A stretch of DNA of 64,000 nucleotides from an uncultured Bacteroidota bacterium (GTDB lineage: Bacteria > Bacteroidota > Ignavibacteria > UBA10030 > UBA8401), in the NCBI GenBank assembly GCA_963827085.1, contig CAWGZY010000002.1:261889-325888 (forward strand). The letters are read 5' to 3'. The notes under the pieces are model-generated. The model worked only from the letters and a program-made list of their open reading frames with translations, searched no databases and was not told the DNA's origin. Positions 1-54,300 of this stretch are shown in pieces; positions within the stretch are counted from its first letter, which is position 1, and every line of letters starts with the position of its first letter. A program made the position numbers and the translations under genes.

Positions 1-879
1 GCACCGAGGACCGTGGGTTTGCCGCGGTGCCACCACTCGACAAAGAGCCACGAAAGTGTTGCGGCAGCGGCGGCAAGATGCGTGGCAACAAAAGCGGAAG
101 TTGCGAGTGCGCCGGAGCCGAGGGCGCTCCCCGCGTTAAATCCAAACCACCCGAACCAGAGGAGTGCCGCACCAAGAAGCGTCAGAGTCAGGTTATGCGG
201 AGGCATCAATTCTCCGCTGTGTCCTCTCCTCTTGCCGATGATAATCGCCGCGACAAGAGCGGAGACTCCCGAGCTGATGTGAACAACAAGCCCTCCTGCG
301 AAATCGAGAGCGCCCAAATTATGAATCCATCCGCCGACTCCCCAAACCCAGTGTGCGATTGGTGCGTACACGAACGTAGACCAAAGGACAATAAACACGA
401 GGTACGTCTTAAATTTAAACCGTTCGGCGAATGCGCCCGTGATGAGTGCGGGAGTTATAACCGCAAACATCATCTGAAAAATCATAAACAATTGATGAGG
501 GATTGTGGCCGCATAGTCGGGGTTCGGTTCCAGCCCGACGCCGCGCAACCCCGCCCACTGCAATCCGCCGATAACGTGTCCGATATCCGGCCCGAACGCA
601 AGGCTGTAGCCGAACAGGATCCACTGGACGGAGATAACGCCGAGAGCGACAAAGCTTTGCATAACTGTCCCCAGAACATTCTTTTTCCGCACCATGCCTC
701 CGTAAAAAAGAGCGAGACCGGGTGTCATGAGCATAACAAGTGCGGTGGAGACCAACATCCACGCCGTATCGCCGGCGTCAATTTTTTGAACAGGTACCGC
801 GGATTGATTTTGTGCCGGCACCATAGCCGGCGTTAAGAAAAGCAGTAAGAATAGAATTGAAGCAGGAAATCGTCTCATT
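1..879 (-). CDS. amt: Ammonium transporter (Amt family), partial. The C-terminus lies beyond the window start. Missed by the ORF track because no stop codon falls inside the window.
   Basis: Reverse-strand translation from the ATG at 877-879 gives MRRFPASILFLLLFLTPAMVPAQ...DTAWMLVSTALVMLMTPGLALFYGGMVRKKNVL...DFAGGLVVHISSGVSALVAAIIIGKRRG...GWFGFNAG. These are canonical Amt/MEP motifs and the frame stays open to position 1. Confidence 0.9.
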
Positions 880-1207
880 GCAGACCTCATCTTGTTCGTT
901 GGAATAGTGCAGCATCATTTTCCACTTCCTTAGTTTGAGCTCTATATTTGCGTGAACATCCGGAAGTGAACATCCTTTTGAACCGCCAATTAACTAGTTA
1001 GGAAATTTTCCGAACCAAGATAAGTATTTTAGGAATTATTTCAAATAGGCTTAATTAAATTACTTGCTTCTTTCGCTTGTCTTTCGGAAAGTGATTCCTT
1101 ATTTTCAATCCCGGGCTAACGATGCAAATCTCATAAACGTCTATTTCAACGTATAATGCGTTTTTTGAAATGGATATTCGCCCCTTTTTTATCTCTTTAT
1201 ATAGATA

Positions 1208-3700: not shown

Positions 3701-5049
3701 GGCCGCACCTCCTTTGCTCGGTCAACACGCATCGCAAAATTTTTCTCTGCACCGGAAGAATTCTGTGATACGGGTTTTTGCTGATCATCCGCTTCTTTCA
3801 TGGGATAGACCGGCGTCGGAATCTGTTCTTTCAGGATTAGCATTCTAAATTTACCCCACAAATACGAGAAGATGTTCGGCTTATCAGGATCGGGGATTTT
3901 GTGACTCACGGCAGGAACCGTCCGCAGGTAGGCGACAATGGCGTTTTGATCATCTTCTTTTAATGCAGCAAGCGCCGCCCACGGCATCGGGAAGGGGAGA
4001 AACTTCCTTCCATCGCGCGAGATTCCCTGAGTAAATGCTCTTTTGATTTCCTGATCGGTCCAGTCCCCCAATCCGGTTTCCTTGTCCGAAGTGAGGTTCC
4101 GCGCAACGTACTTTCCGAACGGATAGAGGTCAAACGTCAATCCTCCCGATAACTGCGACCCCTCGACAATATGGAGATCTTCGGTATATCTGGAATGACA
4201 TCCCCCGCATCCGATGGTCCGGACGAGGTATTTTCCCCGCTGGACAGGGTCAGCCTTTGCTTGAGCATCGAGCTTGCTATAAAATTCCTTGACTTCATTT
4301 TCATTCATCTTCCACACGGGTTTGCGTGCGATTGAAACGATGTAGTTTGCAAGGTTCCACATCTCTTTGTCGCTCGCTGTGCCGGCGTACGACGGCATCG
4401 GTGTTCCGTCAATGCCTGTGCTGAACCGCAGATAAATATCTCGCGCGGTCGCCCCTCCGCGGAAGGTCCATGGCTCCGTCAGGTTCACCGCATTGGTTTC
4501 AAAATTCCATTCATCCTGAAAATCTGTTGCCGCCGCGCCCGTTCCGGCGCCGTCGGTTCCATGACAATCAGCGCACTGCAATTTTGCGTAGACTTTTTTC
4601 CCGGCTGCAATGCTTGCGGGCGAATACGGAACTGGAGTTCCTACACGAATGGGACGGGGTTTATCTTTTTGAAAGCGGGGCGAGAATGTCTTCACATAAT
4701 CGACCACTTCTTTTAATGAATCGCCTTTGATGAACGGCGACCAATCCGGCATTGAGGTCCCATGCAAGCCGTTTTTTATCGTTGTTGTCAGGTCTTCATC
4801 CGTCGGAAGGCTTCCGGATTCCGTCGAGCGAAACTTGAACATGCCAGAAGTAAAATTCCGGGGTCGGGGATTGAGCAGCGCCGAAGCGACGCCATCCCCT
4901 TTTCCCGTTGTCCCATGACATTGAACGCAATGCATAGTATAGATGGATTTTCCCACGGCGGACCGGGAAACCGCTTGCGGAAAGGCGGTCGACGCGCTCC
5001 ACATCAATACCGCAAAAACCATACACGTGGTTTTGGAAAACGGTTTCAT
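3697..5049 (-). CDS. Tri-heme c-type cytochrome (three class-I cytochrome c domains)
   Basis: Signal peptide MKPFSKTTCMVFAVLMWSASTAFPQA. Three CxxCH motifs (CVQCH, CADCH, CGGCH), each in a GxxGxG context. Start chosen at the ATG at 5049 rather than 5103. Confidence 0.8.
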   Translation of the reverse strand: MKPFSKTTCMVFAVLMWSASTAFPQAVSRSAVGKSIYTMHCVQCHGTTGKGDGVASALLNPRPRNFTSGMFKFRSTESGSLPTDEDLTTTIKNGLHGTSMPDWSPFIKGDSLKEVVDYVKTFSPRFQKDKPRPIRVGTPVPYSPASIAAGKKVYAKLQCADCHGTDGAGTGAAATDFQDEWNFETNAVNLTEPWTFRGGATARDIYLRFSTGIDGTPMPSYAGTASDKEMWNLANYIVSIARKPVWKMNENEVKEFYSKLDAQAKADPVQRGKYLVRTIGCGGCHSRYTEDLHIVEGSQLSGGLTFDLYPFGKYVARNLTSDKETGLGDWTDQEIKRAFTQGISRDGRKFLPFPMPWAALAALKEDDQNAIVAYLRTVPAVSHKIPDPDKPNIFSYLWGKFRMLILKEQIPTPVYPMKEADDQQKPVSQNSSGAEKNFAMRVDRAKEVRP

Positions 5050-5074
5050 TATTCCTCCGTGAAATGAAAAAATT

Positions 5075-5170
5075 AAGACATCTGAAAAAATCCTGCACGC
5101 CAAGTCGCTGGCGAAGCCATCCCCGGGATTTGCGCGAGACGTACTTTCAGGAACATTCAGAAGTCTCAGA
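5075..5170. repeat. MITE-like repeat family 1, copy B. Directly abuts the family-2 element at 5171-5346, forming a composite.
   Basis: aagacatctgaaaaaatcc ... cattcagaagtctcaga. The interior matches copy A. Confidence 0.7.
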
Positions 5171-5346
5171 TTATTAACTTATGTTACGCAAAAGCTCAAT
5201 GTTATCGCCACGAAGTCACAAAGTCATTAAGAAAAATAACCTTTTTTATTAATGGACTTAACAGAATTGAGCTTTCCCTAAAAAGTTTTTGTGGCTTCGT
5301 GCCATCGTGGCAAAGCTTTTAAACTCTGCGTAACATCAGTTATTAA
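5171..5346. repeat. MITE-like repeat family 2 (TIR ttaacttatgttacgca / tgcgtaacatcagttattaa), copy H1
   Basis: Shares more than 80% of its length with 25961-26176. Internal inverted repeat gccacgaagtcacaaag / ctttgtggcttcgtg. Confidence 0.7.
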
Positions 5347-5910: not shown

Positions 5911-7578
5911 ATGACAATGCAGCCGCTCGTAGATTTTTTTGCAGAAAACCAGCTTCTTCTTTTCTTTACCGTCATCGGGCTCGGCTACCTTGCCGGCCAG
6001 ATCAAAGTGTTCGGGTTCAGCCTTGGCGTCTCGGCTGTGCTCTTTGTCGGGATAGCGTTCGGCGCGCTTGATAAAAGGCTCAGTCTCCCCGAATACATCT
6101 ACATCATCGGGCTTGTTCTTTTCGTGTATGCCGTCGGGCTGCAATCGGGTCCGAGCTTCTTTGCTTCATTCCAGAAACGCGGATTGCACACAAACGGACT
6201 CGCTGCACTTCTGCTCATCGCCGGAGCGTTGATGACGGTTGTCATTTGGAAAGTTCTTGGCATCTCTCCGTCGAGTGCGGCCGGACTTTTTTGCGGCGCG
6301 TTGACGAGCACTCCGGCACTCGCCGCAACTGTTGAGACTGCAAAATCTCTTTCTATAAACCTTCCGCGCGATGTTGCCGACCTCAACGCCAATAGTCCGG
6401 TAGTAACATACGGCCTTGCGTATCCGTTCGGCGTGCTTGGAGTCCTCTTATGGTCCTTTGTTTTCATAAAGATTTTTAAAATAGACTTTGCAAAGGAAGA
6501 AGCAACGCGCATGAGGGAATCCGGTTCGGACATCATCGTCAGCCGGACGTTTCATATAACGAATCCTGCAATCAATGGAAAAAGCGCCGAGGAATCCCTA
6601 CAGCTTCTCGGCCAACCGGCATTCACACTCAGCCGGATCAAAAAGGGAGCGAGCATCGAAATCGTCAGACCGGACACGATACTCTCCACGGGCGATCGGA
6701 TAGTAGCGGTTGGAACGCAGGATGCACTTGAGCGGGCACGAATATTGTTCGGCGAAGAGGCGGCGGATCATCTCCCTCTCGACAACACCGGAATCGATTT
6801 TCGGCGCATCTTCGTTTCCAACACATCTGTTGTCGGCAAACGTATTCACGAGCTTAATCTAGAAAAAGAATTCGGTGCCACAATCACCCGCTTGCGCCGC
6901 GGCGATGTCGATTTTGTTCCATCGCCGGATACCATTCTTGAAATGGGGGACAGAATCCGCGTTGTCACTCGTCTCGAAAATCTGGACCGCATCACAAAAT
7001 ATTTCGGCGACTCGATGAAAGCGATCTCCGAAACGGATTTTCTTTCCATTTCGTTCGGCATCGTACTGGGAGTGATGGTTGGCATGATCCCTCTTCCGCT
7101 TCCGCACGGAATGGTGTTTAAACTCGGATTTGCCGGCGGACCGCTCGTCGTTGCCCTCATCCTCGGCCGGCTCGAACGCACCGGGCCTATCCTCTGGGCG
7201 CTTCCATTCAACGCAAATCTTGTACTGAGGCAAACAGGGCTTGTCTTTTTCCTCGCGGGAATCGGTACAAAAGCCGGTTTCGGCTTTGGGACAATATTTC
7301 AATCGGGAGGATGGGAATTGATCGCGGCGGGTGCGCTCATAACCACATGCGTTGTCGTGTTAACAATACTTGTCTCCTATAAATACCTGAAGCTACCGAT
7401 GTCCGCAGTCGTAGGAATCGTGGCCGGCATGTCTACACAATCGGCTTGCCTTGCCTATGCGAACCAACAGACGCAAAACGAACAGCCGAACATCTGGTAC
7501 GCCACCGTATATCCGGCCTCGATGATCGCTAAAATCATCCTTGCACAAATCATCGTTTCTGTGCTGTGGATGCTATAA
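5911..7578 (+). CDS. YidE/YbjL-family (AspT-like) transporter with two TrkA-C (RCK_C) domains
   Basis: Duplicated transmembrane halves flank two cytoplasmic RCK_C-like segments (SRIKKGASIEIVRPDT..., TRLRRGDVDFVPSPDT...). Start taken at the ATG at 5911 (MTMQPLVDFF). Confidence 0.75.
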   Translation: MTMQPLVDFFAENQLLLFFTVIGLGYLAGQIKVFGFSLGVSAVLFVGIAFGALDKRLSLPEYIYIIGLVLFVYAVGLQSGPSFFASFQKRGLHTNGLAALLLIAGALMTVVIWKVLGISPSSAAGLFCGALTSTPALAATVETAKSLSINLPRDVADLNANSPVVTYGLAYPFGVLGVLLWSFVFIKIFKIDFAKEEATRMRESGSDIIVSRTFHITNPAINGKSAEESLQLLGQPAFTLSRIKKGASIEIVRPDTILSTGDRIVAVGTQDALERARILFGEEAADHLPLDNTGIDFRRIFVSNTSVVGKRIHELNLEKEFGATITRLRRGDVDFVPSPDTILEMGDRIRVVTRLENLDRITKYFGDSMKAISETDFLSISFGIVLGVMVGMIPLPLPHGMVFKLGFAGGPLVVALILGRLERTGPILWALPFNANLVLRQTGLVFFLAGIGTKAGFGFGTIFQSGGWELIAAGALITTCVVVLTILVSYKYLKLPMSAVVGIVAGMSTQSACLAYANQQTQNEQPNIWYATVYPASMIAKIILAQIIVSVLWML

Positions 7579-7614
7579 GCAGATGTCGGACATCTGTTGA
7601 AATTGCGAGCATGT

Positions 7615-7927
7615 GACCTTCATCTCGTTCCCAATCTCTGATTGGGAACGGAGTAAAGCTGAAGCTCCGCTTCACGGGTGGGTCGAAGGGACATCATTGG
7701 CTGCAACATTCGTTCCCAAACGGAGTTTGGGAACGAGATAAACTAGATAAAATCTGCATTTTAATTATATACCGAACATGAATTTTTATCATAACTTTCC
7801 GTTGACTTTCATCTCGTTCCCAATCTCTGATTGGGAACGGAGTATGGCAGAAGCTCGGCTTCACAAATGGAACGAAGGGACGACATTGGCGGCACAATTC
7901 GTTCCCAAACGGAGTTTGGGAACGAGA
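7615..7927. repeat. Tandem pair of a ~125-bp structured repeat (family 3): copy 1 at 7615-7738 and copy 2 at 7805-7927. Each is flanked by ~31-bp inverted ends that are themselves hairpins (gttcccaat ctctg attgggaac, and gttcccaaa cggag tttgggaac).
   Basis: Copies are ~88% identical. Each is preceded by a tgacYttcatctcg motif. A family-1 TIR fragment (ggacatctgttgaaattgc) sits at 7589-7608. Confidence 0.7.
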
Positions 7928-8058
7928 CAATAACAGCCGATCCGTAGCAGCGGGAGAGTTTAGGAACCAGATAAAAACAAGATAAAAGCGGCCGGGCTCA
8001 CCCAAATTGCGGCATACACTACTCACTTTTCGCTTCAAATCTTTCTCGCAACTTTCCG

Positions 8059-8087
8059 TTGACTTTTTTCCATTTTTTTGCTATAAT
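8059..8087 (+). promoter_or_regulatory. Sigma70-type promoter for rplU-rpmA: TTGACT, 17-bp spacer, TATAAT
   Basis: ttgact (8059-8064), spacer tttttccatttttttgc, tataat (8082-8087), about 45 nt upstream of the rplU start. Confidence 0.55.
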
Positions 8088-8133
8088 AGTAGTCCAATTT
8101 GAAAGACCATTATTTTGAGGAAGGATGTATCCG

Positions 8134-8442
8134 ATGTATGCAGTCGTTGAGATCGCCGGGCAGCAATACAAAGTGAACCCCGAAGAAAAGCTTTACGTGC
8201 CGAGGCTGGAAAATGAAGTCGGCAGCAGCGTGAAATTCGAAAAAGTGCTCCTGCTTTCCAACGACAAAGAAGTCAAAGTCGGCGCGCCCGTCGTTTCAGG
8301 CGCTTCGGTGAATGCAAAAGTACTTGCGCATGTGAAGGACGAAAAGGTTATTGTCTTCAAAAAGAAGAAGCGTAAAGGCTACCGCGTGAAACGCGGCCAT
8401 CGGCAGCAATACACCCACATAGAAATTACATCGATAGCGTAA
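8134..8442 (+). CDS. rplU: 50S ribosomal protein L21
   Basis: MYAVVEIAGQQYKV...KKKKRKGYRVKRGHRQ. Start preferred at the ATG at 8134 (10 nt after ggaagg) over 8125. Confidence 0.9.
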   Translation: MYAVVEIAGQQYKVNPEEKLYVPRLENEVGSSVKFEKVLLLSNDKEVKVGAPVVSGASVNAKVLAHVKDEKVIVFKKKKRKGYRVKRGHRQQYTHIEITSIA

Positions 8443-8456
8443 GGGAGATTTGAAGT

Positions 8457-8710
8457 ATGGCTCATAAAAAAGGGGGCGGAAGCTCCCGTAACGGACGAGA
8501 CAGCAATGCCCAGCGGCTTGGCGTAAAGCGCTTCAGCGGCCAAAAAGTTCTCGCTGGAACAATCTTAGTGCGCCAGCGGGGAACAAAATTTCATCCCGGC
8601 TCTAATGTGGCAAAGGGGGGGACGATACGTTGTTCGCCCTGACTGACGGCATAGTGAAGTTTCAACGGGTCGGAAAAACACGACAGGCAATTTCAATCGT
8701 CACGGCATAA
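8457..8710 (+). CDS. rpmA: 50S ribosomal protein L27, with an apparent single-base frameshift near 8612-8623
   Basis: Frame 0 reads [51 protein letters not shown] and then hits a premature stop ([11 protein letters not shown]). The +2 frame continues [33 protein letters not shown], the canonical L27 C-terminus. One G is missing in gtgg(g)c or in the G7 run. Confidence 0.8.
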
Positions 8711-51335: not shown

Positions 51336-54300
51336 ATGGATGACACAAGACCACAATCGCACCGTCAGTATTTACCATTGTGGAATTTCTGGCTTGCAGC
51401 GGCAGTCTGGACAGCCCTCATCGGTTTCTCCTTTGTGTACAATGTACATTCGACACGCTCCATGATGTCGCAAATGGCTCTCTTCGAAGCACGCAGGATT
51501 TTTGAGAGAAACATCGCAAGCAGTCATTGGGAGGCTGGTTCGCTCGGCCTTCAGCTCAACTTCGGATCGAACGCACTCACGCAAGGCCGCATCACGAGTT
51601 TAAAACTCGTCGACGAGAAAAACGCCCCCGATGTCTGGGAACGCACTTCCGTCGAGCGGCTTTCGCACGGAGAAGTTGAAATAGCCGATGTCATGACGGT
51701 CGATGGGTTTCCGTATCTTCGCGTGATGAAACCGCTCGTCGTTACCAGGCGCTGCCTGGATTGCCACTCGGCGCAAGGCTACTCCGAGGGAGAAATAAGG
51801 GGCGGGATAAGCGTTGCCGTACCGCTCAAATCTTCGCAGGAAATCGAAGCAAGAGATCAGAAGGCTTCCCTTCTGTGGCATTTCATTATCTATCTTGTCG
51901 GGCTCGGCGGAATCATAGGGGGAACGATAAGCGTTCAGAAGAAAAGGCGGGCTCACGAATTTGCCCGTGAGGCTCAAGTCTCCGCAGAAAGGAAGCTGGC
52001 ATCTCAGGAGCAATATCTTAAAGCGATCGTTCAGGGCTCGCCGATTGCTGTGGTCGTTTTGGATTTACATCAGATCATCGAGTCATGCAACGAAGCATTC
52101 GAGAACATTTTCGGATACTCCATAACGGAAGCGGTCGGCAAGAACCTGGATGATTTGATCGTTCCGGCTGACCGCAGAACTGAAGCGGAACAATTGACGC
52201 GATCGTCCAACAGCGACGGAAGGGTTCACAAGGAATTGACGTGCCGCCGGAAGGACGGATCACTTGTCGCTGTCAAGGTTTTCGCCAAGTCGATTTCCAT
52301 TAATGGACTCGAAGTGGGAGTCGTAGCGCAGTACGTCGATATCAGCGAGCAGAAGCAATCTAAGGAGAACCTGCAGAGAGAGAGAACGCTCCTTCGGACA
52401 CTCATCGACAACCTGCCAGACGCAATCTACGCCAAAGACACTTCCTGCCGTAAGACCATTGCCAATCCTGCAGACGTGCATAATATGGGGTTGCAGTCAG
52501 AAGCTGACGTCTTAGGCAAAGACGACTTTGACCTTTTCCCAAAAGATGTCGCGGAGGGATTCTTTGCTGACGACCAATCGGTTATTCAAACCGGCATACC
52601 CGTGCTCAATAGAGAAGAATATTTCATTGACGCAGAAGGCCGAAAGCGCTGGCTGGAAACTTCTAAACTTCCTTTGAAGGATGAGCGGGACAAAATTATT
52701 GGCATCATCGGCATCGGTCGCGAAATTACGAAAAGAAAAAATGCCGAAGAAGCACTCAAGCATGAAAAAAGTGTTATGGAAGCCCTGATGGACAACGTCC
52801 CGGACAGCATCTACTTTAAAGACCGCCAATGCCGGCTGACGAAAATCAGCCGAAAGATGTTGAATGATTTGAAAATGAATGATATGAGCCAGGTCATCGG
52901 AAAAACGGACGTGGATTTGTTCGGCGAGGAATTTGGCCGGAAAACACTGGAGAACGACGAGCGCCTGATGGCAATAGGTAAACCAATCGTGGGGTTAACC
53001 GAGAGCAGGAAGTTGGAGGACGGGAGTTTCTATTGGACGTCAACCACGAAGGTACCGCTTCGGGACAACAGCGGCCAAATCGTCGGGCTGGTCGGCATCA
53101 CACGCGAAATCAATGAGTTCATGAAGGCGCAGGAGGAGCGCGAACGTGAACGTAACCTCCTCCGCACGCTTATTGATAACATACCTGACTACATCTATGT
53201 GAAAGACCGGGACGGCCGTTTTATTGTATCCAATACAGCCGTCGTGCATCAAATGGGGCTTGCTTCCGAGAACGAGCTTTTAGGAAAAACTGATTTCGAC
53301 TTTTTCCCCCACGATCTGGCTGCAAAATACTACGCAGAAGAACAAGCGATTATCCAGGCTGATAAGGGAATCTACAATCATGAAGGTCCCTCCGTCGATG
53401 CCAGCAAAGAAGAGAAAGATCGATGGGTTACGACGAACAAAGTCATTCTTCGGGATGGTCAAGGCAGCATCACCGGGTTCGTCGGTATCGGCCGCGACAT
53501 CACTGAGCGAAAACGGGCGGAAGAACAAATTCGTTCCCAATTATCGATTATCGAGGAACAGAATCTCGCGCTCACAACTGCAAATGAGAAAGCACTGGAA
53601 GCCACTAAAGCAAAAAGTGCATTTCTCGCCAGCATGTCGCATGAGCTGCGAACTCCTCTGAATGCCATCATCGGCTACAGCGAAATGCTGGACGAAGAAA
53701 TGGGCGACAATGGCGACGACCGGTATCGCGCAGATGTTGAGAAGGTACGTTCGGCCGGCAAACATCTTTTAGGATTGATCAACGATATTCTCGATCTCTC
53801 GAAGATCGAATCCGGCAAGATGGAGTTGTATCTCGAAGAGTTCGACCTGAAAAACGTGATCGGGGAAGTGGCTTCGATGGTTCAGCCCCTGATCGCTCAG
53901 AATGAGAATACTTTTGTGTTGACGGGGAACGAGGAGTCTCGGCTTGTGCGGCTCGATCTCACGAAGGTCCGACAGATCCTCTTTAATCTTATCAGTAATG
54001 CGTCGAAGTTTACGCAGAATGGCACCGTGTCGCTCGAGGTCGCTTCCGTTCCCGGCGACGCCGCTCCACGGCCGGCAATTCGCTTCAGGGTTTCCGATAC
54101 CGGAATAGGAATTACGAAAGAACAAGAAGAACGGCTTTTTAAAGAGTTTGCTCAAGCGGACGGCTCCACGACTCGCAGGTACGGCGGCACCGGCCTTGGC
54201 CTTGCGATCTCGAAACGATTTTGTGAAATGATGGGAGGTTCGATAGGCATAGAAAGTTCCTCAAGTAAAGGAACTACATTTGTCGCTACTTTACCGCAGC

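Follow-up and report, generated by a model that had tools for sequence, protein, structure and literature searches.

Systems of repetitive extragenic palindromic sequences (REPs) and REP-associated tyrosine transposases (RAYTs) have been studied almost only in Proteobacteria, with REPs of the GTAG type. REP doublets that form hairpins (REPINs; in E. coli, bacterial interspersed mosaic elements or BIMEs) and their RAYT, or TnpAREP, transposases are the subject of Nunvar 2010, Bertels and Rainey 2011 and Ton-Hoang 2012, as cited in PMC6006769 and PMC3733652. Canonical REPs carry the 5'-foot GT[AG]G and go with RAYT subclasses 2.2, 2.4, 2.5, 2.7 and 2.8 (PMC6006769). Quentin et al. 2018 reported REPtrons, in which inverted REP copies surround the transposase gene, for five subclasses of RAYT; atypical structures devoid of GT[AG]G go with subclass 2.6 and with class 3 (PMC6006769). 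The signature of subclass 2.6 is a length of 179 aa and the motifs NH[LIV]H, WQ, YIH[QN]NP and SS (PMC6006769). Hairpin recognition and the cutting and rejoining of single strands are established for E. coli TnpAREP and for the IS200/IS605 enzymes (PMC6006769). Di Nocera et al. 2013 divided REPs into superfamilies tagged GTAG and CGTC, and reported genes for tyrosine transposases that lie between long inverted repeats with partial self-complementarity (PMC3733652). Here, we analyze a stretch of 64,000 nucleotides from an uncultured bacterium of the Ignavibacteria (Bacteroidota; contig CAWGZY010000002.1), referred to below as the window, in which two structured repeat units lie between a transporter gene and the rplU-rpmA genes. 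Loci compared with it are designated by L numbers.

The region upstream of rplU is very probably a REP/REPIN cluster of the selfish, RAYT-mobilized type, composed of two complete REPINs and one decayed REP. This identity is supported by the doublet anatomy, membership of a dispersed family, selection on the hairpin, the flanking of RAYT genes by the same hairpin and presence/absence polymorphism among relatives. An earlier reading of the letters alone (the sequence-only reading) had described two units of about 88% identity whose ends are stem-loops. With coordinate shifts of one to three bases, the units were recovered as direct repeats of 128 nt each (7614-7741 and 7803-7930; 88% identity; spacing 189 nt). 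Their inverted ends (arms 7619-7650 and 7711-7742 in unit 1, 7812-7846 and 7893-7927 in unit 2) are 32-35 nt long, 83-88% complementary and 46-60 nt apart. All four ends contain a perfect 9-5-9 palindrome: GTTCCCAAT-CTCTG-ATTGGGAAC at 7627-7649 (unit 1) and 7816-7838 (unit 2), and GTTCCCAAA-CGGAG-TTTGGGAAC at 7712-7734 (unit 1) and 7901-7923 (unit 2). The 23-mer palindrome had no match in 100 shuffles of the 64-kb window. As the proposed fold check showed, the minimum-energy fold of each unit is a single long hairpin, at -62.2 kcal/mol for unit 1 (z-score -7.1) and -53.1 kcal/mol for unit 2 (z-score -6.6).

The units display the layout of REP hairpins, with a foot CTC, a stem GTTCCCAAN extended by 1-2 extra pairs and a loop of 3-5 nt, and the spacer of about 60 nt between paired REPs contains a second small hairpin, GAAGC-TCY-GCTTC. 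REPIN unit 1 (7623-7738, plus strand) comprises a 5' REP at 7623-7653 (hairpin 7627-7649), the inner hairpin GAAGC-TCC-GCTTC at 7661-7673 and an inverted 3' REP at 7709-7738 (hairpin 7712-7734). REPIN unit 2 (7812-7927, plus strand), 88% identical to unit 1, comprises a 5' REP at 7812-7842, the inner hairpin GAAGC-TCG-GCTTC at 7850-7862 and a 3' REP at 7898-7927. The decayed third REP (AACAGCC..GCAGCGGGAGAGTTTAGGAACCAGATAAAA) occupies 7932-7976 on the plus strand; it is of the 3' type, its loop is expanded, its left stem is lost, and the half-site TTAGGAACCAGA at 7960 belongs to it. It matches a 3' REP variant with an expanded loop in L164/L145 (..CCCAAACAGCC..GCAGCGGGAGAGTTTGGGAA..), and its counterparts are the 3' end of unit A plus 'cggcggggctcaccc' in L135 and the decayed unit in L122. 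Elsewhere in the window, the half-site ATTCGTTCCCAA at 53529-53540 exactly matches the left half of the 3' REP; it lies inside a sensor-kinase-like coding region, lacks a palindrome partner and was rejected as a chance match.

One genome per species (596 Gb) was scanned with the pattern CGTTCCCAA-N7-TTGGGAACG, which returned at least 120 genome loci against about 9 expected by chance, the expectation being calculated for 18 fixed, self-complementary bases at assumed equal base frequencies. According to the record titles, the hosts are Planctomycetota, Verrucomicrobiota, Desulfobacterota, sulfur-oxidizing Gammaproteobacteria, Ignavibacteria and Calditrichota, and further Hydrogenedentota, Nitrospirales, Caldilineaceae, Cytophagia, Cloacimonadota and Peribacteria. 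Flanks that the pattern leaves free are conserved in two types, CT before and CACTTG after the palindrome or CAAGTG before and AG after it; the two types are the arms of a single inverted repeat. Once a few mismatches are tolerated, most palindromes prove to be paired, the 5'-type standing first and the 3'-type 60-150 nt from it, and the doublet seen in the window is therefore the usual form. In L027 and L137, a hairpin with both of its outer feet stands alone. The foot itself, (T/C)CTC before GTTCCC and GAG after GGGAAC, is present in nearly all copies of the family.

Beyond the fixed stem, 135 of 142 copies have a Watson-Crick 10th pair (mostly G-C or A-T; 54% expected from base frequencies), and the 11th position, next inward, is likewise paired. 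The full stem accordingly measures 11-12 bp, closed by a 3-nt loop, and evolves by compensatory change that maintains the hairpin. A companion small hairpin stands a few bases inside the 5' palindrome, as GAAG-CTCYG-CTTC in low-GC contigs and TTCGAAT-CTCYG-ATTCGAA in high-GC contigs; both window units have it (7661-7673 and 7850-7862). The exact 23-mer of the window was found in 86 metagenome loci. The Ga0265338 sample series holds many distinct low-GC loci with it, for example ten, and several metagenome-assembled genomes (MAGs) supply 3-5 loci each among the matches listed.

Some observations on the spread of the palindrome stand by themselves. The identical 23-mer GTTCCCAATCTCTGATTGGGAAC occurs in high-GC contigs (L177, L133, L143, L155 and similar ones) as well as in low-GC ones (the window, L135, L139, L161). 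Twenty viral-classed stretches from IMG/VR (L217-L236) carry the palindrome, some in 2-3 copies, and no RAYT homologue is encoded in these stretches by tBLASTn. When all open reading frames (ORFs) within 1.5 kb of the repeats were clustered across the genome loci, no protein family recurred beside them; the clusters were spurious translations of the repeat and housekeeping genes, and the RAYT link came from short metagenome contigs. The largest such 'protein cluster' consists of the repeat-derived peptides FPNSVWER, VPKLRLGT and RSQTEFGNE from 20 unrelated genome loci.

The arm with its two hairpins flanks RAYT genes in other genomes, and in some metagenome copies an ORF comes after the 5' arm. 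The link to a transposase is given by an ORF at L177:284-898, which scores 112 bits on the NCBIfam model NF047646, REP-associated tyrosine transposase (cut-off 80), also matches Pfam Y1_Tnp, and lies between inverted exact copies of the window 23-mer at 307-329 (plus) and 952-974 (minus). Inverted palindromes flank a RAYT gene in five loci (L177, L190, L201, L020 and L108), the homologues in the last four having been located by tBLASTn. In L020, a Chthoniobacteraceae MAG, the palindromes at 4691 and 5320 enclose a RAYT gene at 4793-5284. In L108, an Ignavibacteria MAG, the RAYT gene (6048-6584, minus strand) is flanked by CTCGTTCCCAAACTCTGTTTGGGAACG and CTCGTTCCCAACGTCCCGTTGGGAACG, variants (..AACTCTGTT.. 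/ ..AACGTCCCGTT..) that pair with the 5' REP of the window in low-GC metagenome doublets. The L108 protein has 709 homologues at E < 1e-10, mostly of 176-178 aa, several of which are named REP-associated tyrosine transposase (in Cyanobacteria, Desulfobacterales, Nealsonbacteria and Fimbriiglobus); its sole relative in the PDB is E. coli TnpAREP, 4ER8. Four more homologue loci (L237, L241-L243) have the same flank design with changed upper stems, namely GTTCCCACG.., GTTCCCATG.., GTTCCCAGC.. (Kamptonema) and GTTCCCACG.. (Desulfobacterales). The CTC/GAG feet are retained in all four, and the companion hairpin GAGGC-TCT-GCCTC is retained in Kamptonema. The stems beside RAYT genes vary by compensatory changes (AT, CG, TG/CA, GC). 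The RAYTs are 176-178 aa long, with the motifs (N/D)H(F/L)H, WQ, Y(I/L)H(A/N)NP and YSS.

Within this protein group, the RAYT of the high-GC set is 70% identical to that of Chthoniobacteraceae L020 and only 46% to that of Ignavibacteria L108. A metagenome contig, L241 (2053-3034), has TIR/NACHT and FGE-sulfatase genes upstream of its RAYT gene, whose start lies 2 nt past a bAvd gene (diversity-generating retroelement accessory protein); behind the RAYT gene stand three REP copies in tandem, repeated every 74 nt.

The sequence-only reading had suggested that the units may carry a promoter-like leader whose motif is reused as the -35 region of the rplU-rpmA promoter. That promoter is present as described (8038-8087, plus strand), with a conserved upstream block that includes the 17-mer AACTTTCCGTTGACTTT (8050-8066), the -35 box TTGACT (8059-8064) and the -10 box TATAAT (8082-8087). 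In a promoter scan of 7400-8300, TTGACT-17-TATAAT at 8059-8087 agrees with the consensus at 11/12 positions and has a TG extension. It ends 38-47 nt before the rplU start, the ATG being at 8125 or 8134. The 17-mer is repeated exactly at 7793-7809, as had been noticed, its promoter copy lying one base from the claimed 8051-8067, and the homology reaches 29 nt (7781-7809 versus 8038-8066) at 86%. The partial promoter copy (P', 7781-7809, plus strand) thus comprises the upstream half and the -35 box TTGACT (7802-7807), and abuts the 5' end of unit 2. No -10-like hexamer follows this extra TTGACT: CTCTGA stands 17 nt downstream, and the site is unlisted in the promoter scan, which returned the rplU promoter and one minus-strand site in the spacer, and no -35/-10 pair borne by a unit. 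Of the leader said to precede each unit, the copy before unit 2 is real, the 17-mer being exact; unit 1 is preceded merely by gTGACCtt, with about 5 nt in common with the 17-mer beyond the element itself.

From AACTTTCCGTTGACTTTTTT through the -10 box and beyond, the sequence is invariant in relatives (across L121, L122, L123 and L130 and across L244-L253) in five differing upstream contexts: the transporter gene as in the window, restriction-modification systems of type III and of type I, a transposase, and one further gene. Similarity among these relatives ends about 10-15 nt upstream of the 17-mer. Among 253 loci, the 17-mer is restricted to rplU loci and never stands beside any of about 95 other repeat copies. 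Since it is invariant at rplU and absent beside other repeats, the 17-mer is, on this distribution, the native -35 region of the rplU promoter and not part of the repeat. A promoter-like leader on the units is not supported, and the extra copy (7781-7809) is best explained as a duplicated promoter fragment, a by-product of local rearrangement.

Orthologous sites were found with the exact L21 protein encoded by rplU as anchor. Among relatives whose L21 is identical, the commonest allele keeps the transporter gene but has zero units in a spacer of about 200 nt; this empty site was seen in L123, L126, L244, L247, L248 and L250-L253, where identity to the window is 88% for the transporter gene and 92% for rplU-rpmA. 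L122 has a single unit, decayed and internally deleted. L135/L205, a more distant relative (about 80-85% identical over 16 kb of synteny), has two units that are 88% identical to each other, and a 35-nt half-promoter copy ending TTGACTTTTT lies a few bases before the second. About 20 nt of this half-promoter are exact in both L135 copies while the neighboring spacer diverged. At the half-promoter junctions, the window and L135/L205 differ by a 9-12-nt indel, and two unique spacers, X and Y, are in different order. With P for the intact promoter, U1, U2, UA and UB for the units and the remnant for the decayed REP, the window reads X-U1-P'-U2-remnant-Y-P and L135 reads UA-Y-P'-UB-X-P. No single duplication or deletion explains both arrangements, and we leave them as recombination among direct repeats. 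Elsewhere in the lineage, a tandem duplication that includes unique flank occurs in L161 (258-nt period, 97% identity), and L139 has two adjacent units.

In L121, L124-L130, L245, L246 and L249, synteny breaks at about 8040, 10-15 nt upstream of the rplU -35 block; among these loci with an identical L21, the transporter gene is replaced by ResIII plus N6_N4_Mtase (type III restriction-modification), by an HsdR/YgjP pair (type I) or by a Transposase_mut insertion sequence (IS). The second suggestion of the sequence-only reading, a hotspot for repeat insertion at the ribosomal-protein promoter, is supported by the empty, decayed and two-unit alleles of identical-L21 relatives, and further by the restriction-modification or transposase genes that abut the same promoter in others. 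As these alignments have it, the site just upstream of the rplU promoter is unstable, whether by gain or by loss.

A mechanism can be proposed from what is known of RAYTs with their REPs and of IS200/IS605. A RAYT encoded elsewhere in the source genome would bind and cut the single-stranded hairpins. Such an enzyme would recognize the folded single-stranded hairpin and its short foot, cut and rejoin single-stranded DNA and act in trans on doublets. Non-autonomous doublets would thereby be copied or moved, probably at the replication fork. A single insertion or duplication across the promoter, probably before the split from the L135 lineage, would have placed next to a unit a half-promoter that lacks its -10 box, and recombination between direct repeats would then have rearranged the cluster. 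The intact downstream promoter would have been retained because rplU-rpmA needs it. By analogy with REPs in E. coli, a local effect of the units is possible, namely stabilizing or ending the transporter transcript or insulating the promoter.

Several points weigh against a REPIN cluster. The foot lacks the GT[AG]G tetranucleotide of canonical REPs, which excludes the canonical GTAG type and is still compatible with the atypical REPtrons without GT[AG]G. Within the 64-kb window, the repeat is present at a single locus only. Neither the window nor the low-GC contigs of the same sample series contain a RAYT by tBLASTn with two RAYT queries, so that we infer the cognate enzyme in the source genome. 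Binding, cleavage and movement of REPINs at this locus are postulated by analogy. The empty sites are known only from relatives at 88-92% DNA identity, and gain is indistinguishable from loss, since units are absent from closer relatives yet present in L135, which is more distant. Finally, 17 nt of the half-promoter are exact in two lineages whose spacer is otherwise 15-25% diverged, which neutral decay fails to explain; gene conversion or some function may account for it.

Other explanations of the units meet the same evidence. That they are structured small-RNA genes, or a cis-regulatory leader of rplU-rpmA, transcribed from the TTGACT of the 17-mer, would suit the very stable folds (z about -7), which are slightly better on the plus strand (-62.2/-53.1 kcal/mol) than on the minus strand (-54.7/-49.4 kcal/mol), as well as the loop pairing CUCUG/CGGAG, whose required G-U pair is possible on the plus strand only, and the exact 17 nt of the half-promoter in two diverged lineages. 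However, the extra TTGACT is without a -10 hexamer, the units lie upstream of the rplU promoter and thus outside its leader, they are missing in most identical-L21 relatives, and the hairpins recur in unrelated intergenic contexts of a dozen phyla and flank a transposase gene. The Rfam search that had been advised for the unit gave no family at gathering score: Rfam 15 over the whole window returned two tRNAs only, and a permissive search of 7500-8200 returned only plant microRNA hairpin models at 20-35 bits, noise well under the cut-offs of 90-139. We consider an RNA gene or leader very unlikely. As for the half-promoter (7781-7809), the REPIN reading could be extended by giving it a function, for example as a decoy for RNA polymerase or for a factor that binds AACTTTCCGTTGACTTT, or by letting the REPIN modulate rplU. 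The 17 nt exact in both window copies, the roughly 20 nt exact in the L135 copies despite a diverged spacer and the block upstream of the -35 box, invariant in all relatives, are in line with this addition; yet gene conversion, the copies being 190-260 nt apart, accounts for their identity just as well, one copy suffices in most relatives and the extra copy has no -10 box, which makes such a function unlikely.

Classical miniature inverted-repeat transposable elements (MITEs), deletion derivatives of DDE-transposase IS elements recognized by their terminal inverted repeats, share with the units a length of 116-128 nt, inverted ends of about 31 nt, dispersal and presence/absence polymorphism. 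A target-site duplication is nevertheless absent at both units, each end is itself palindromic, and hairpins occur solo with both outer feet (L027, L137). The only protein found between inverted copies is a RAYT of the Y1/HUH type, no DDE transposase recurs near the repeats in the 120 genome loci listed, and the compensatory change in the stem fits recognition of a hairpin rather than of a duplex end; a MITE origin is accordingly highly improbable. Hardly credible is a role of the palindromes as operators of a dimeric DNA-binding regulator of the transporter gene or rplU: four perfect 9-5-9 palindromes do stand within 300 nt with a promoter adjacent, but the same palindromes are found beside unrelated genes in many phyla with no recurring neighbor, their stem positions co-vary instead of keeping their sequence, and close relatives retain promoter and gene without them. 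Three candidate signals were set aside as well: a sigma-54 promoter (TGGC..TTCG inside the units, by eye), with which neither the spacing nor the GC dinucleotide agrees and whose bases are not the same in the two units; an integron attC site, whose R/L core GTTRRRY is absent; and GGA loops of the CsrA type, which occur in some loops only and on both strands.

Around the REPIN cluster, a number of smaller features were recorded. ORFs of 41-114 aa cross the repeats at 7613-7741 and 7778-7933 on the plus strand and at 7694-8038 and 7550-7675 on the minus strand, with peptides such as ..FPISDWER.. and ..VPKRSLGTR... They are likely to be listed as hypothetical proteins by gene callers, and annotators should leave the ORFs of 42-114 aa through the repeats uncalled. 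The transporter gene, of the Asp-Al_Ex family by the Pfam tags on its orthologues, has its stop codon at 7576-7578, and 2 nt past it stands a small perfect hairpin, CAGATGT-CGG-ACATCTG (7580-7596, plus strand), in flanking sequence outside the repeat. This hairpin, CAGATGTCGGACATCTG followed by TTGAA, recurs in L135 at 6001-6020 as AGATGTCCTACATCTGTTGAA (related motif AGATGTCCTACATCT), where it stands between unit B, the second unit, and the promoter and not after the gene, a change of order that is unaccounted for. On the plus strand, the 7400-8300 scan found no intrinsic-terminator-like site. The minus-strand site in the spacer between the units, ATGATA-17-TATAAT (10/12; 7792-7764), is promoter-like by consensus match only and reads leftward, toward unit 1 and the end of the transporter gene on its 3' side. 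Downstream, rplU (ribosomal protein L21; 8125-8442, plus strand; Pfam Ribosomal_L21p) encodes 105 aa from the start at 8125 or 102 aa from that at 8134. In rpmA (from 8457), the window has one base fewer at 8610-8622 (AAGGGGGGGAC) than L122 and L135 (AAAGGCGGCGAC), so that L27 is frameshifted past 54 codons and its ORF is shortened from 84 to 61 aa. A homopolymer error of sequencing or assembly seems likelier here than a real pseudogene of an essential gene.

For the window itself, an apparent regulatory curiosity is mainly explained away: the 'reused leader' is best taken as a duplicated promoter fragment. What remains of interest is a cross-phylum REP whose arm has two hairpins, a 23-mer shared across base compositions and the unexplained conservation of the half-promoter in two lineages. 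More tentatively, the CTC-GTTCCCA..TGGGAAC-GAG hairpin, its companion hairpin and a RAYT of about 177 aa could form one largely undescribed REP/RAYT lineage over a dozen phyla, an idea that we hold as possible though doubtful. Its hosts may comprise Cyanobacteria, Planctomycetota, Verrucomicrobiota, Desulfobacterota, Ignavibacteria/Bacteroidota, Hydrogenedentota, large sulfur Gammaproteobacteria and bacteria of the candidate phyla radiation (CPR). The basal stem is nearly unchanged across phyla, and the identical 23-mer serves both the high-GC contigs with a Chthoniobacteraceae-like RAYT and the low-GC, Bacteroidota-like lineage of the window. If true, this would mean either an unusually rigid recognition code between protein and hairpin or recent transfer of whole RAYT-REPIN systems between phyla, contrary to the usual view of lineage-specific REPs inherited vertically with their RAYT. 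The family is also a handy natural series on how a RAYT reads its hairpin, with basal stem and foot conserved and upper stem and loop varying compensatorily, and permits testing for movement of such systems between phyla.

Among other short repeats, Correia elements (Neisseria), ERIC and RUP are 100-150 bp long and intergenic, have inverted ends and sometimes affect neighboring promoters or transcripts. They are thought to be mobilized by DDE-type IS enzymes and leave target duplications, and some have outward promoters. Unlike these elements, the window units show neither target duplications nor outward promoters. Their likeness is to REPIN/RAYT systems: the hairpins are short and intergenic, they may stand alone, be arrayed in tandem clusters or form inverted doublets whose fold is one long hairpin, and inverted copies surround a single HUH/Y1 transposase gene, the arrangement of a REPtron, whose protein matches the NCBIfam RAYT equivalog. 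In contrast to classical REPs, the window type is without GT[AG]G and has a conserved outer foot CTC (GAG on the other arm), and each of its arms has a second small hairpin with a related loop. Whereas classical REPs are genus- or species-specific, the basal stem GTTCCCA of the window type is common to many phyla.

This REP type and its clade of 177-aa RAYTs have barely been described. The literature search found no paper on this hairpin family or its breadth, an incomplete search that leaves novelty unproven, and full-text searching with the repeat sequence gave primer coincidences only. The hairpin type without GT[AG]G makes one appearance in the searchable literature, as an unclassified entry: Table S1 of Quentin et al. 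gives GTATGCATTCCCACGCAAAGCATGGGAACGAG beside Desulfatibacillum alkenivorans ACL04004.1 under subclass '0/?' (PMC6006769), a hairpin of the same type as GCGTTCCCACGCAAAGCGTGGGAACGAG in L243. In the loci compared here, it is found together with its transposase in many environmental phyla. The TIRtrons and their TIRYTs, with 'double palindromic TIRs' (terminal inverted repeats) in the passages describing them (PMC3733652), are alike by description; their shared motif GGGGWSAS is absent here. By length and motifs, the RAYTs described here are nearest to subclass 2.6, a resemblance only and not a placement in a tree; subclass 2.6 is found mostly in Bacteroidetes and has weak secondary structures (PMC6006769), whereas the hairpins of the present family are strong.

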